A DNA stretch of 64,000 nt from Ostreococcus lucimarinus (GCA_000092065.1 CP000599.1), one strand, 5' to 3'. Shown: positions 10,744-58,445, numbered from the stretch's first letter. Notes: generated from the sequence alone by a model not told the origin. Program-made: numbers and translations.

Positions 10744-11070
10744 TCGAGGGCCTTTATATACGTATATTTCGTAGAAATATACTTTATATTCGGAAACATG
10801 TCGTATGGGTATTGTGTCTGTGGTTATAATTGGTAGTATCCGAATATTCGGACACACGGCGTATGCGTATTGTGTATATACACATAATTGGTAAAAGTCC
10901 GAGCGCGCCGACCGTCGGCCGCGCGCCGCACGTCGCGACGCGCGATCGCGCGACGCCCGATCGCGTCCCGCGCGACGCCCGCGGACCTTCTCGACGCCTC
11001 GACCCGATCTTAACCGCCCGCGACCCGCGCGCGCGACACCCGAGGCGTCACGTCGACGACGACGCGCGTC
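10744..11070. promoter_or_regulatory. bidirectional promoter shared by the divergent SOD1 and CCS genes; AT-rich island with a duplicated ~58-bp element and a CCGAATATTCGG palindrome
   Basis: Lies between the SOD1 ATG (minus) and the CCS ATG (plus). The 10785-10896 stretch is AT-rich against a ~67% GC background and holds two imperfect copies of CG[TG]ATG.GTATTGTGT...TAATTGGTA. A perfect 12-bp palindrome sits at 10835-10846. Confidence 0.55.
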
Positions 11071-12033
11071 ATGATTCCGTCGACGCCGCGCCTTCGCGCC
11101 GCCGCGCCGCGTCGCGTCGTCGACCGCGCGTCGCGATCGCGAACGCGGTCGCGATGCCGACGCGCGCTCGAACGCGCCGACGCGCGGACGAAAGACCTCG
11201 AGCGGGCGTTGGAATTCATGGTGGAGATGCGGTGCGGAGGGTGCGCGGCTAAGGTGACGACGGCGTGCGAGGCGCTCGCGGGCACGACGCGCGTCGACGC
11301 GTCGCTCGGGACGAACACGGTGACGGTGATCACGCGCGATGCGGAGCGAACGGTCAGGGAGGCGATCGAGAGCGCCGGGTATAAGGCGCGATTGATCGGG
11401 CAGGGGCGCGCGGAGCGAAGCGCCGAAGACGACGACGATTTCGGCGAGGCGCTGGCGGAGGCGCTGGGCACGGACGTGCGGACGCTGCGACAGAGCCTGG
11501 CGGCGGTGGCGGAGTTTAAGGGGAAGGCGTACGGGCACGGTGAGGCGCGAGGGACGGTGCGGCTGGTGCAGGTGAGCGAGGAGACGATATTGGCGGAGGC
11601 GGCGCTGGACGGGTTGAGTCCGGGGGCGCACGCGATTCGCGTGCACGAATACGGGGATTTGACGCGCGGGATGGATTCGATCGGGGACGTGTACGGGGGG
11701 GAGGGAGGGGCGGGGATGATCGGGATCGTCGTCGCGGACGAGAATGGGTCGGCGACGATGCCGTCGACGATGTTGAGCTCGGAGCTCAAGGCGTGGGACG
11801 TCATCGGTCGAAGCGTCGCCGTGTACGCCGCCGCGGACGGCGATACGACCGGCGCGGTGTGCGCCGTGCTCGCTCGAAGCGCGGGCGTGGGGGCGAATCA
11901 TAAAAAGTTGTGCCAGTGCGATGGGACGATCATCTGGGAGGCGGGCGAAGATTTCTTGCCCCGCGCGGTGGACGAATGCGACGCCGCGAGACCGCTGCTC
12001 GGCAAAGGAATCACCACCGCTCGGCGCGGGTGA
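11071..12033 (+). CDS. CCS: copper chaperone for superoxide dismutase (CCS)
   Basis: Three-domain CCS architecture: an Atx1/HMA-like domain with [10 protein letters not shown] (MxCxxC), a SOD1-like domain II ([11 protein letters not shown]...[14 protein letters not shown]...DENG), and a C-terminal CxC motif (KLCQCDG). N-terminal R/S-rich leader. Confidence 0.8.
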
Positions 12034-12121
12034 GAATAGCGCGCGTGTAATGATGATTGCGATGATTGATTGATTGATGAATTGATGCTTAAAAAGGACG
12101 TTATCGTTGAGATTGTTATAT

Positions 12122-55108: not shown

Positions 55109-58100
55109 TTAGTCCACGAACTTTATTAATGAGACAAGACGCACCTTTAAGCCTTTTCGCCGGCGCACCGAGTCCATGAGTTGTCGTGCTATGTTGGGTC
55201 CGACGTCACCCTCTTCACCGTATTCTTCTCGCTCTTCTTCCGTGGTCGGCGTAAAAAATGGATCCATATCTATGGGGCTCCAGTGACTAAATACTAATTG
55301 CGCTGTGGACGCCCCTGAGGTTTGCGCGCGGAGCTGATCGACAAAGCCAAACGCCGTCGCCACCGGCAGGTAGGCGTGGATCACGAACACCCCCGTGCCC
55401 TCGCGAATGGTCTCCGACAACACTTGCGATCGGCGTTTACCGAGCACGGCGTAAGTACCTCCGAGTGCGTCCGCAGTGGTAGTGATGACCGCCAAGTACA
55501 TCGCCTCGACAAGACGCGTTCCGGCCTTGAGCACGGCTTTGCGAATCGCGTCTCGAACCGCATTGATGATTTGACCCGAGAGCGGACCAAACTGATCGCC
55601 ATCTGTATCTTCGACGGTACGGTCGTCATCTTCATTGCCTCGATTCACGGCAACGTTCAGCGTTATCTGCACTCCAGTCAGCGGTTCGTCGCAGAGCGGG
55701 CCGCGATCGGTCGCCATCTGAAATCCCGTCAACACGCTTCCTTGCACCGAGTTCAAATCAAAATCAGCCGCGACGTCTTCTGGCGGAGACCCGTCCATGT
55801 CATAGGGCTTTCTCACCCCGAGCGCGACGCCCACGTTAGCGTGGCCAAACTCCTTCTCTTCATCATCCACGTCTACGGTGTACGTGCCGACGTTGAGCAC
55901 GTTTGATCCTACGCGCTTCGGTCCTAGAGCCCACGCCGAACGAAATGTATCCTCCACTACTCCTTCGGGACCTTGCTCATCGTACGTAGCCGCTTCGCGC
56001 GCTGCCGTCACTTTCTCAATGAATGCTTTGGCGAGCATTTTGTTCTCGTCGCTTTCGGTGTCTTTGGCGAGCAATATCACCTTGAGCGCATCCGCAGAAT
56101 CATCCACCGCGCGAACGATGAAGTTGTGAATGGGTTTCGCCGTGCACGTAAACGTCAGACGTCCATTCGCCGTCGACGACGACGCCGTACCCGTGGTCGT
56201 GACGCCTTCGCGGAAGGAAATGATTGGCGGGGACACACGTATGGGAACCTTGGCGAATCGCTCGCGCAAATCCGCGACGCATCGCTCGAGATGCACTTCA
56301 CCCGCCGCCGCGACGACGTGCTCGCCCGTGTCCATCACGCTCACCTCGACAAAGGCGTCAGCTCTATTCAACAGCCGTAAACCTTCGACGAGAGCGTCCA
56401 TGTCGGTCACGTTTTCGGGTTCAACCGCCACCTTCACGATCGCCGACGCCTGAAACATCATTTCCCCAAACGGCGGGCACTCGAGCGAAGACGAGAGCGT
56501 GGCGGACTTTAAAATCGCCCTGTCCAAGCCGCCAATGGCGAGCAAGTTTCCGGCGGGAACTTCATCCACCTTGAACATCCCTTGACCCATCATGAGGTAC
56601 AGCTCGGTAAGCTCCACTTCTTCGATGTTCGACGCGTCATAATCGCTCGGGTCGTGCTGAGAATTCAACACGTAGAGCTTGTCGCCTTTTCGTACCGTGC
56701 CCGAATAAATTCTCGCAAAGGCTAAAAACTTGACGTCGCCACCACCCGCTTCGGTGAGCGCACCTTGGACGTGTACCTTGGGCACAGCTATCATCTTACA
56801 GACGAAAATGATCTTGGGCGCGTCATCCGAAGCCTTACCTGCGATTACCGCGCGTCGGGCCTCGTCCAAGCCTTTCGGGCGCGCGCCACGCAGTACGGGC
56901 TGTGGCATGACTCGATTGACGCGTCGCGCCGCGGCGGCTACTGGATTCGGCACGCAATTCACCACCATCTCTAATAAACACGATGACATCGGAAGCCAGG
57001 CACGCATGACGCTCTGTAGAGCCGCTCGACGATCCGTGTTTTTCAGCTCTCGCTCGCCCACGTCCACCTTGAGTGCTCGAGCGAGGGTGGCCAAATCCTT
57101 TTCCACCCACTCGCCGTTTTTTTCGCTCTCCGCCGTGCGATAGATCTTCCAGATCGGCTCCAAAATGCACTGCACGAACAAAGGTTTAAGTTTCCCGTTC
57201 GCCACTTTGCGACTGACGATCCGTTTCATCTTCGGGTGGTAATACCAATCTCCGCACAGCGCCTTGGTCAACGCCGCGGACGAGCACCCGAGCTTTTCGG
57301 CGTACAAATCCGCGAACGCGTCTGGGCGAAACGCCCATCCATCGATCGCGCTCCCAAACGCCACGTTCCCGCTCGCGATGTTAAACGCCTCTTCCTCATT
57401 CACTAAATCTTCTTCGTCTTCGAGATAATCACACGTCGTCGTCGTCGTCGTCGCGTCGTTCTCGCCGCCGTTTTCGCCCCTTCCCTCCTCGTGCGCGTCG
57501 AAGGCGCTCAAAAAAGTATCCGCCTGCGATATAAACTTTTCGCTCTCAAACGCGCTCATCAACCCGTTCACCTCGTGCAACAACGACCGTATTCTCTCGT
57601 ACGCTTCCATCGGCGTGTAACCGAGCTCGACACACACGCGATCGAGCTTATTAAATACCAAGCACGGCTTCAATCGTTCCTCCCACGCCTGTCGCAGCAC
57701 CGCGTGCGTCTGCACGCACACCCCCTCCACGACGTCCACGACGACCAAGCACCCGTCGCTCAGCCGCGCCGCCGCCGACACTTCGCTGCAAAAATCCACG
57801 TGTCCCGGCGAATCGATCACCGTTATCAGCACTCGCTCGACGATTTCTTCGCCGCCCTCGTCGCCGTCGCGCTTTTTCTCGCGCGCCGCCCTCGGCGTGT
57901 ACAGCAGCGCGATCCCCGCGCTCTTCATCGTGATCCCTCGTCGCTGTTCGTCCTCGTGAAAGTCCATGTACCGCATCTGTCCCGCTTGCTTTTGCGATAT
58001 GAACCCGTTGTGCGCCACGAGCGCGTCCGTGAGCGTCGTCTTGCCGTGATCGACGTGCGCGAGCACGCACACGTTTCGGCACTGCGCGCCGTCGTCGCGC

Positions 58101-58141
58101 GCGAATCGCAGCGCGTGCAGCGCTTTCACGGCGTCGTCCAT
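55109..58141 (-). CDS. EFL1: elongation factor-like GTPase 1 (EFL1/Ria1; 60S subunit maturation, EF-2 family)
   Basis: G1 motif AHVDHGKTTLTDAL and EF-2-like domains II-V, with the large insertion characteristic of EFL1 (~1010 aa). ATG (MDDAVKAL) is the reverse complement of 58139-58141. Confidence 0.8.
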   Translation of the reverse strand: MDDAVKALHALRFARDDGAQCRNVCVLAHVDHGKTTLTDALVAHNGFISQKQAGQMRYMDFHEDEQRRGITMKSAGIALLYTPRAAREKKRDGDEGGEEIVERVLITVIDSPGHVDFCSEVSAAARLSDGCLVVVDVVEGVCVQTHAVLRQAWEERLKPCLVFNKLDRVCVELGYTPMEAYERIRSLLHEVNGLMSAFESEKFISQADTFLSAFDAHEEGRGENGGENDATTTTTTCDYLEDEEDLVNEEEAFNIASGNVAFGSAIDGWAFRPDAFADLYAEKLGCSSAALTKALCGDWYYHPKMKRIVSRKVANGKLKPLFVQCILEPIWKIYRTAESEKNGEWVEKDLATLARALKVDVGERELKNTDRRAALQSVMRAWLPMSSCLLEMVVNCVPNPVAAAARRVNRVMPQPVLRGARPKGLDEARRAVIAGKASDDAPKIIFVCKMIAVPKVHVQGALTEAGGGDVKFLAFARIYSGTVRKGDKLYVLNSQHDPSDYDASNIEEVELTELYLMMGQGMFKVDEVPAGNLLAIGGLDRAILKSATLSSSLECPPFGEMMFQASAIVKVAVEPENVTDMDALVEGLRLLNRADAFVEVSVMDTGEHVVAAAGEVHLERCVADLRERFAKVPIRVSPPIISFREGVTTTGTASSSTANGRLTFTCTAKPIHNFIVRAVDDSADALKVILLAKDTESDENKMLAKAFIEKVTAAREAATYDEQGPEGVVEDTFRSAWALGPKRVGSNVLNVGTYTVDVDDEEKEFGHANVGVALGVRKPYDMDGSPPEDVAADFDLNSVQGSVLTGFQMATDRGPLCDEPLTGVQITLNVAVNRGNEDDDRTVEDTDGDQFGPLSGQIINAVRDAIRKAVLKAGTRLVEAMYLAVITTTADALGGTYAVLGKRRSQVLSETIREGTGVFVIHAYLPVATAFGFVDQLRAQTSGASTAQLVFSHWSPIDMDPFFTPTTEEEREEYGEEGDVGPNIARQLMDSVRRRKGLKVRLVSLIKFVD

Positions 58142-58445
58142 CGCGACGCAGTCCGCGCTCGGTCCTCGGACGCGCCTTCCTCGCCCCGGCTCTCCGCTCT
58201 CCGCTCTCCGCTCTCGGCTCTCGGCCTCGGCCTCGCCGCCGTCTGTCGCCCGCGCGCGCGCGCGTTCGTTAGCGCGCCGGTCGCGCGGGCGTCGCGTCGT
58301 CCGCGGTTCGCGGTCTCGCACTTTTTCACGCATTGAAGACGCATGTAGACCGATGTGTGTGTGTACATCCCCATATCATAATATATAACACACGGACACG
58401 CGTGGCCGTCCGCGACGCGTCCGCGACGTCGCGATTTCGCGCGCG

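Follow-up and report, generated by a model that had tools for sequence, protein, structure and literature searches.

A putative cis-regulatory octamer in promoter spacers across the genus Ostreococcus

The window and the octamer in its promoter spacers

We analysed a 64-kb stretch of nuclear DNA from Ostreococcus lucimarinus, a tiny marine green alga (hereafter the window; 63.5% GC, no Ns), and a short sequence motif with the core ATGTCCGA that recurs in its AT-rich promoter spacers. The window is dense with intron-poor, long open reading frames (ORFs) encoding typical eukaryotic nuclear proteins. Their products include an LSD1-like SWIRM/amine oxidase, an adaptin, EFL1, a GATA zinc-finger factor, a DEAD-box helicase, a MiaB-like protein, a pseudouridine synthase, ADP-glucose pyrophosphorylase (AGPase), the organellar ribosomal protein L19, Cu/Zn superoxide dismutase (SOD), CCS, the copper chaperone for SOD (HMA and Sod_Cu domains), and ARPC3. 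Over 448 aa, the product of ORF 19020-20630 matches XP_001422384.1 of O. lucimarinus CCE9901 with 100% identity, and contigs at about 99-99.5% identity to the window are plentiful in marine metagenomes (Tara and others). The gene map was drawn from codon usage, and every spacer was then tabulated.

The core is usually preceded directly by CC[G/A]N, giving CCRN-ATGTCCGA, a word of 8-12 bp that we also write CC[GA]NATGTCCGA. Its instances in promoter spacers of the window are as follows.

14929-14941, + strand: motif CCGTATGTCCGAT, core ATGTCCGA at 14933-14940, in the spacer from which ORF 12122-14803 (-) and the AGPase gene 15416-16852 (+) diverge
29427-29439, + strand: motif CCGTATGTCCGAT, in the divergent spacer of the DEAD-box helicase gene 27367-29283 (-) and the organellar L19 gene 29631-30542 (+)
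42199-42211, + strand: motif CCGAATGTCCGAA, 5' of the GATA zinc-finger gene 42720-44495 (+), the conserved copy
42301-42313, + strand: motif CCGAATGTCCGAA(C), a second, lineage-specific copy 102 bp downstream of the 42199 copy
10847-10859, - strand: one-mismatch variant CCGTGTGTCCGAA (core GTGTCCGA), in the bidirectional promoter between the SOD gene 9922-10743 (-) and the CCS gene 11071-12033 (+)

Scanning the window with CCGWATGTCCGAW, we find four exact matches (14929, 29427, 42199 and 42301), all on the + strand and all in promoter spacers, against 0.01 expected from dinucleotide shuffles, for a pattern that was derived post hoc from the same sites. A sequence-only reading of the window had placed near-identical motifs at 14929/29428 and 42200/42303, and these are indeed located within 1-2 bp of those coordinates. 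The core ATGTCCGA occurs once more in the window, at 51383-51390, inside coding sequence. The motif is thus carried by 3 of the ~29 promoter-bearing spacers, or by 4 when the variant is counted, and the four carriers are the divergent spacers with the deepest AT troughs (50-bp GC minima of 0.24-0.28). The distance from the motif to the nearest ATG ranges from 75 to >600 bp. TATA-like runs flank the 14929 motif on either side, while the 42199 motif has CATATATA immediately before it and (CA)n after it. The AGPase and L19 promoters share one order with their counterparts in a sister species: the motif, TATTTAT(A/G), ~30-45 bp, and then CATTCGA.

Enrichment in islands and retention in orthologous promoters

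Comparing the window with its relatives, we chose the loci by protein identity and synteny, never by the motif. They comprise a sister species at about 66% GC (L163/L164 and L165/L166), O. tauri (L167, GCA_002158475.1), another species (L168-L170), lineages at 55-59% GC (L007-L011 and L157-L162) and a lineage 97-99% identical to the window (L171/L172). All 8-mers were enumerated in the window and seven non-redundant relative loci, 193.6 kb in total with 30.8 kb of islands, from at least five Ostreococcus lineages. A test within the window for k-mers common to several islands was discarded, CG-rich words from padded island edges having swamped it, and enumerations at loose island thresholds suffered in the same way.

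The octamer ATGTCCGA occurs 13 times in the 30.8 kb of islands and a single time in the remaining 162.8 kb, so that its density differs 69-fold. It was found in 12 islands of five loci, where a second-order Markov model predicts 1.34 (p=2e-8), and p is about 3e-4 once corrected for 15,230 words. It ranks second among the island-specific 8-mers, behind an (ATTG)n microsatellite. The specificity is sharp: against the 13 island matches of the exact word, each one-mismatch variant has at most 5. The sequence-only reading had proposed genome-wide motif discovery restricted to low-GC islands, and the enumeration over these eight loci bore out the enrichment.

The motif is also retained in orthologous promoters. 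The helicase/L19 spacer carries it in four lineages, namely the window, L165, O. tauri and L168. In the sister species (L165) it reads CCGTATGTCCGA, the same 12-mer as in the window with diverged flanks; O. tauri has two copies 33 bp apart, and L168 has TCGAATGTCCGAG. Relative to the genes, the O. tauri and L168 motifs lie on the strand opposite to that in the window and L165. At the GATA promoter, three of the four lineages compared have the motif: L171/L172 retain the first window copy (42199), and L011, a distant relative, carries TATATACGATCCAAATGTCCGAT in a spacer that cannot otherwise be aligned. When the GATA spacer was aligned directly to the relatives at 55% GC, nothing alignable was found. 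Overall, the core is present in 3 of the 5 orthologous spacers that no longer align with the window, the expectation being about 0.02 for each spacer.

In the sister species (L163/L164), the AGPase promoter has TACATATACCACATGTCCGAC inside a tandemly duplicated module. Here about 100 bp align with the window at an identity of roughly 70%, and conservation is strongest in the motif, in a TATTTATAG box and in CATTCGAC. Ten population variants of this promoter show no single-nucleotide polymorphism in the 14929 motif, a comparison without power, as about 0.7 variants would be expected. At the SOD/CCS promoter, the sister species has the exact CCGCATGTCCGAA aligned to the window variant (L163 5065-, L164 5057-). 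The SOD and CCS genes diverge from one shared spacer of 330-470 bp (window 10744-11217), and this arrangement is kept in L163/L164.

Unselected extra instances were found in other spacers, one in O. tauri (5802-) and one in L168 (19005+). The L168 copy lies on the + strand between two genes on the - strand, antisense to the sole available promoter. A metagenome scan with TRTACCGWATGTCCGA served as a source of extra loci and not of counts, the matches listed being mostly bacterial noise. Among them were population variants of the 14929 locus and at least four independent Mamiellophyceae-like loci whose 5' spacers hold the extended motif, given here from the matches listed.

L102/L130: upstream of starch synthase III
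L074/L075/L129: spacer between a gene for a 404-aa protein and RPS4e
L029: a further locus
L095: a further locus

Aligning 18 instances, we obtained the extended consensus (ATAT/ATACGT)-n-CC[G/A]N-ATGTCCGA. The similarity stops ~12 bp upstream and at the last core base, and a TATA-like or ATACGTA sequence lies within about 25 bp of the motif in most instances.

A conserved block beside the motif in the relatives L010/L011 proved to be 5S rRNA. The spacer 5' of the GATA-factor gene holds a 5S rRNA gene (Rfam 74.6 bits) in L011 (14723-14840, -) and in the matching L010 block. No 5S gene is present in the window; the similar string CGTACGGTTTTT at the end of the corresponding stretch (42040-42170) may be a decayed 5S remnant.

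AT-rich islands, palindromes and spacer turnover

The nine AT-rich islands listed by the sequence-only reading have GC contents of 34-56% and all lie below their surroundings. The background is 63.5% and not ~67% as it had stated, and two of the nine are marginal.

10785-10896: AT-rich island, GC 36.6%, SOD/CCS divergent spacer
14820-14990: AT-rich island, GC 36.8%, promoter spacer with the motif
23430-23480: weak (marginal) island, GC 47.1%, between a RING-finger gene 22416-23381 (-) and a DUF285 gene 23657-24940 (+), motif-free
29340-29460: AT-rich island, GC 33.9%, promoter spacer with the motif
37090-37200: AT-rich island, GC 45.0%, tandem spacer 5' of ARPC3 37117-37749 (+)
40920-41110: AT-rich island, GC 44.0%, tandem spacer with both neighbours on the - strand, motif-free
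42160-42330: AT-rich island, GC 45.6%, promoter spacer with the motif
50690-50900: marginal island, GC 55.9%, between ORF 49340-50674 (-) and the adaptin gene (+), motif-free
58340-58400: AT-rich island, GC 44.3%, between EFL1 55109-58333 (-) and an RCC1-like gene (+)
12031-12151, 27324-27404 and 44503-44609: AT-rich islands in convergent 3'-3' spacers, outside the earlier list

The AT-richness of the 50690-50900 island is confined to its first ~70 bp. In the 37090-37200 island, the closest sequence to the motif is a two-mismatch look-alike, CCGTGTGTCAGAA, at 37171, and the 58340-58400 island holds just the word TGTCCG (CGTGTCCGTGTG on the - strand). All nine islands hold at least one gene start, and seven of them are at divergent starts as claimed, the islands at 37090-37200 and 40920-41110 being in tandem spacers. 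The equation of AT-rich island with promoter is not supported, and the earlier list was selective. The spacer table shows an AT-rich dip in nearly all spacers of the window, convergent ones included, with 35% GC at 12034-12121, 34% at 27329-27366 and 40% at 44496-44565. Since the 3'-3' spacers are equally AT-rich, AT-richness marks intergenic DNA generally and not promoters specifically; the islands are the ordinary short intergenic spacers of a compact genome. Spacers are enriched in TATA-type hexamers, CGTATA, (CA)n and the (ATTG)n microsatellite.

Several further observations concern the islands and the gene ends beside them. The gene 5' ends reach GC contents of 75-85% and are rich in (CG)n (e.g. 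15001-15415, 29480-29630 and 42800-42842). Genes on the + strand beside motif islands have an unusually long GC-rich leader from the island to the first ATG; that of AGPase is ~400 nt, and it is likewise long in the sister species. The top-ranking (ATTG)n/(TCAA)n 8-mer occurs in 13 islands of 7 of the 8 Ostreococcus loci and nowhere outside islands, and its usual place is between the AT-rich island and the start codon (e.g. 42505-42525, 42640-42655 and 42770-42785). ORF 12122-14803 (-) encodes 893 aa with no Pfam match, and its start codon (14801-14803) is polymorphic among population contigs, reading on the + strand CAT versus CGA or TAT, so some strains must begin translation further downstream; the gene calls across these contigs are 781-783 versus 891-893 aa. 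Scanning the window for RNA genes, we found no Rfam family at the gathering score and no tRNA, and there was no RNA gene in the islands, including with Rfam in E-value mode on 41950-42450.

The sequence-only reading had also described two perfect palindromes as members of the same functional class as the motif.

10839-10852: 14-bp perfect palindrome TCCGAATATTCGGA, SOD/CCS promoter
10786-10893: diverged tandem duplication of a ~54-bp promoter module, units 10786-10839 and 10840-10893
42254-42274: 21-bp perfect palindrome GTATTGGGAATTTCCCAATAC, with two inverted CCAAT pentamers
~42231-42425: lineage-specific insertion (~195 bp) in the GATA promoter, absent from L171/L172

The first had been given as a 12-bp palindrome, 'ccgaatattcggac', at 10835; a palindrome is there, with the length and position listed above, and its right half overlaps the motif variant CCGTGTGTCCGAA. 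It is the junction of the two ~54-bp units, whose pattern is ATATTCGGA...CGTATGnGTATTGTGT...ATAATTGGTA...TCCGA. The sister species (L163/L164) has a single ~54-bp unit and lacks the palindrome, while the conspecific variant L086 also has the duplication. The second palindrome was confirmed as described. It sits in the ~195-bp insertion together with the second motif copy (42301) and a (AGCTGATACG)x7.1 repeat, and L171/L172 are otherwise 97-99% identical to the window. Tested as a functional operator, the 21-bp palindrome is not conserved within the species complex, being missing in L171/L172. The two palindromes thus could not be kept as functional units of the motif class.

Palindromes with arms of at least 7 are enriched about 3-fold in the islands (9 observed versus 2.7 expected, p~0.008), which makes a single 14-bp palindrome unexceptional; those with arms of at least 10 are rare (0.07 expected). 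This enrichment is consistent with the high local duplication rate that Tandem Repeats Finder reveals in promoter spacers. On the sequence comparisons, we take the palindromes to be accidental by-products of recent local duplications and insertions.

Young tandem duplications were seen in promoter spacers at 25132-25369 (75 bp x3.2, 100% identity), 42346-42416 (10 bp x7.1), 42447-42791 (130 bp x2.6), 47670-47883 (113 bp x1.9) and 58444-58531 (43 bp x2). Repeat copy number in spacers varies among near-identical lineages, the 130-bp unit being present once in L171 and 2.6 times in the window. A segment of ~1.3 kb (window 40895-42190) with an ORF of 271 aa and no Pfam match (41188-42003, -) is absent from L171/L172. 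At its left breakpoint lies a 24-bp perfect palindrome, TACGACGACGATATCGTCGTCGTA (40888-40911), as if the insert started with an inverted copy of the flank. The palindrome GACGAGTCATGACTCGTC (41142-41159; core GAGTCATGACTC, two inverted TGACTC half-sites) also occurs in the spacers upstream of AGPase in L157-L160, a non-orthologous locus of another Ostreococcus lineage. Judged by this recurrence, it could be a second cis-element.

The motif search also led to a 105-kb marine IMG/VR contig of about 32% GC, IMGVR_UViG_3300046167_000859 (L014). It encodes an adenine methyltransferase and the major capsid protein of a nucleocytoplasmic large DNA virus, whose closest solved structure is the capsid of chlorovirus PBCV-1. 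About 300 bp from the contig end lies a repeat block (13763-14252) that begins with (TAAACCC)x5.3 telomere-like repeats. These are followed by 90-bp repeats (x2.6) with TGTACCGAATGTCCGAAC or a close variant, mostly with AACCCTAAAC as well, and lastly by an 18-bp x10.9 tandem array of GTTCGGACATTCGGTACG, the reverse complement of the extended motif. No IMG/VR contig besides this one has the 18-bp array. Related repeats occur in L016, L038, L039, L047, L062, L104 and L137.

A candidate site for a sequence-specific DNA-binding protein

Taken with its island-specificity and its retention across species, the octamer CCRN-ATGTCCGA is, we think, probably a genus-conserved cis-regulatory site of a putative sequence-specific DNA-binding protein. 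The word is over-represented in regulatory DNA, kept in orthologous promoters and specific as an exact word, as is typical of a cis-element. It occurs in ~10-14% of promoter spacers and in either orientation, which argues for the site of a transcription factor or general regulatory factor and not for a core-promoter element. The suggestion that the motifs form a core-promoter or transcription-factor site class therefore stands in its second half: the class is shared, non-random and genus-wide and of transcription-factor type, while its few spacers and reversed orientations speak against the core promoter.

A subset of promoter-containing spacers holds the genus-conserved element with the core ATGTCCGA and the extended form CC[G/A]N-ATGTCCGA. 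In the mechanism that we propose, one sequence-specific protein would recognise it from within the nucleosome-poor promoter island regardless of orientation. The protein would activate a minority of promoters (roughly 10-15%, many of them bidirectional) or keep them open. Its targets in the window would be the AGPase, DEAD helicase/organellar L19, GATA factor and Cu/Zn-SOD/CCS promoters. Tandem duplication of promoter modules alters the copy number of the site, and palindromes would arise by accident from such duplications and from insertions. That a protein binds the site, that it affects transcription and where it lies with respect to the transcription start are all predictions from the DNA.

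Several points weigh against this reading. Islands of close lineages (the window versus L163/L165) partly align, so the occurrences of ATGTCCGA are not all independent; with the islands collapsed to ~6 orthology groups, correction for multiple testing would leave the enumeration statistic, taken by itself, barely significant. No octamer occurs in 51 kb from the lineages at 55-59% GC (L007, L010 and L157), in the GATA promoter of L010, or in the AGPase promoter of the L157-L162 lineage, which has just ATGTCTA at that place. No common function is obvious among the adjacent genes, which serve starch synthesis, translation in organelles or copper/oxidative stress, or encode a GATA factor. The function of ATGTCCGA itself is deduced from conservation and position alone. 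Our literature search returned no paper that joins ATGTCCGA with Ostreococcus, and a study that lay outside it, Piganeau et al. 2009, reportedly a phylogenetic footprinting in Ostreococcus, may list the word. The search gave nothing useful on transcription start sites or TATA boxes in Ostreococcus, and neither the diel transcriptome paper nor the small nucleolar RNA paper on the genus has a promoter-motif analysis.

The unrelated functions of the neighbouring genes would suit a general regulatory or insulator-type factor that fixes nucleosome-free regions and boundaries, also near chromosome ends, in a role like that of yeast Reb1, Abf1, Rap1 or Tbf1 and not as a pathway-specific activator. 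Divergent spacers often hold the element, which occurs regardless of orientation, and its frequency in islands comes near that of the TATATA hexamer (13 versus 18). The viral contig adds extended-motif arrays about 100 bp from (TAAACCC)5 telomere-like repeats. The presence of the element in just about 10-14% of promoter spacers speaks against such a factor, and the viral link may be coincidence, the contig having been found by motif search; we consider this explanation unlikely. A lineage-specific core-promoter element (TATA/BRE/Inr-like) whose distance and direction from the start site are fixed would account for the TATA-like sequence directly before the motif in three window instances, and for the order of boxes that AGPase and L19 share in both species. 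The low share of carrier spacers in the window, the reversal between species within one helicase/L19 promoter, the antisense L168 copy and the wide range of distances to the nearest ATG all disagree with it and leave it very improbable.

The core starts with ATG, and every instance opens a short ORF, of 6-16 codons where read. It might accordingly be the start of an upstream ORF, ATG TCC GAn (Met-Ser-Asp/Glu), kept in 5' leaders for translational control. The peptides diverge after the third codon and vary in length, whereas the conservation reaches upstream of the ATG (CC[G/A]N) and ends inside the third codon, a pattern at the level of DNA. Moreover, the word changes orientation relative to the genes beside it, both neighbours of the L168 19005 copy are antisense to that copy, and many copies have TATA-like sequence downstream, so we give translational control very little credence. 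It is just as hard to believe that the matches have no function, being due to chance or being what is left of a short dispersed repeat or mobile element that local duplication has spread. The spacers are rich in young tandem duplications, and the window copies 42199/42301 and the two L163 copies do stem from local duplication. Against this, the flanks of independent copies share nothing past about 12 bp upstream, the exact octamer is kept in orthologous spacers that no longer align, and ATGTCCGA is nearly absent from the non-island sequence. The limitation of similarity to the motif among the 18 instances also argues against a dispersed repeat, and without extended flank similarity a transposon or miniature inverted-repeat transposable element, whether as terminal or dispersed repeat, was rejected.

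Among known systems, the putative regulatory site is closest in kind to plant and green-algal cis-elements such as the evening element AAAATATCT (part of the O. tauri CCA1/TOC1 clock circuit), the telo-box AAACCCTA and the site II motifs. Like them, it is 8-12 bp long, restricted to promoter spacers of a minority of genes, apparently usable in either orientation, and conserved while its flanks turn over; unlike them in sequence, it matches none of the three. With the yeast Reb1/Abf1/Rap1/Tbf1 sites it shares a compact genome, short and often bidirectional promoters and an orientation-independent word in the spacer. Yeast subtelomeres hold clusters of Tbf1/Reb1 sites, and a possible second location near telomere-like repeats is seen here in the viral contig only. 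The motif differs from the yeast sites in being rarer (about a tenth of spacers), and the likeness is without evident sequence similarity. In most instances it lies, like TATA, TFIIB recognition and initiator elements, within about 25 bp of a TATA-like sequence, but it is neither directional nor general as they are.

The palindromes were also compared with known sites. The PHR1/PSR1 site P1BS (PHR1-binding sequence) is GNATATNC, and a heat-shock element (HSE) consists of three or more alternating nGAAn units. Inside TCCGAATATTCGGA lies GAATATTC, a word that agrees with GNATATNC as well as with a GAAnnTTC dimer and occurs once in the 193.6 kb. The palindrome was rejected as either site, being a duplication-junction product that is missing in the sister species and has just two GAA/TTC units; its neighbours, unlike the usual setting of these sites, are copper/oxidative-stress genes. 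The arms of GTATTGGGAATTTCCCAATAC each hold CCAAT/ATTGG as in the CCAAT box of NF-Y, with a third ATTGG at 42286. This candidate was rejected too, as CCAAT is unenriched in islands (1.3-fold) and the palindrome is absent from the 97-99% identical lineage. For the motif itself, a plant-type upstream sequence element of small nuclear RNA genes (RTCCCACATCG plus TATA) was dismissed: the likeness extends to 5-7 of 10 positions, and the window, at the Rfam gathering score, has no small nuclear RNA or other small RNA gene for it to precede. The sole small RNA found was the 5S rRNA gene in L010/L011; 5S genes have an internal promoter. The evening element, the ARF sites TGTCGG/TGTCTC, the SBP core GTAC, the E-box and the TALE site TGACA gave no sequence match, and CCGAC of the dehydration-responsive element is present in some copies only.

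Should the virus infect Mamiellophyceae, its arrays would point to the host factor that we propose for the promoters being recruited or titrated. As a long shot, ATGTCCGA could be the site of a general, chromatin-organising factor of Mamiellophyceae, acting at promoters and next to telomeric repeats, and a marine chlorovirus/prasinovirus-like giant virus could have acquired arrays of it (18 bp x10.9 and the 90-bp repeats) beside (TTTAGGG)n at its genome end, recruiting or titrating the factor.

Ostreococcus, the smallest free-living eukaryote, is a working model for how genes are controlled over circadian and diel cycles, and good luciferase reporters are available for it. To our knowledge, very few of its cis-elements are known. 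What is new here, as judged from the sequence comparisons, is a well-defined conserved promoter element of the familiar transcription-factor-site type. Conserved sites of this kind are expected in any genome, and we regard the result as useful and unsurprising, its interest being mainly for picoeukaryote gene regulation. The tiny promoters evolve fast, tandem duplications and insertions shifting site copy number between near-identical lineages. An octamer that is near-exclusive to promoter spacers and kept despite strand flips is a handle for finding a regulator, and it could help to sort Ostreococcus promoters into classes.

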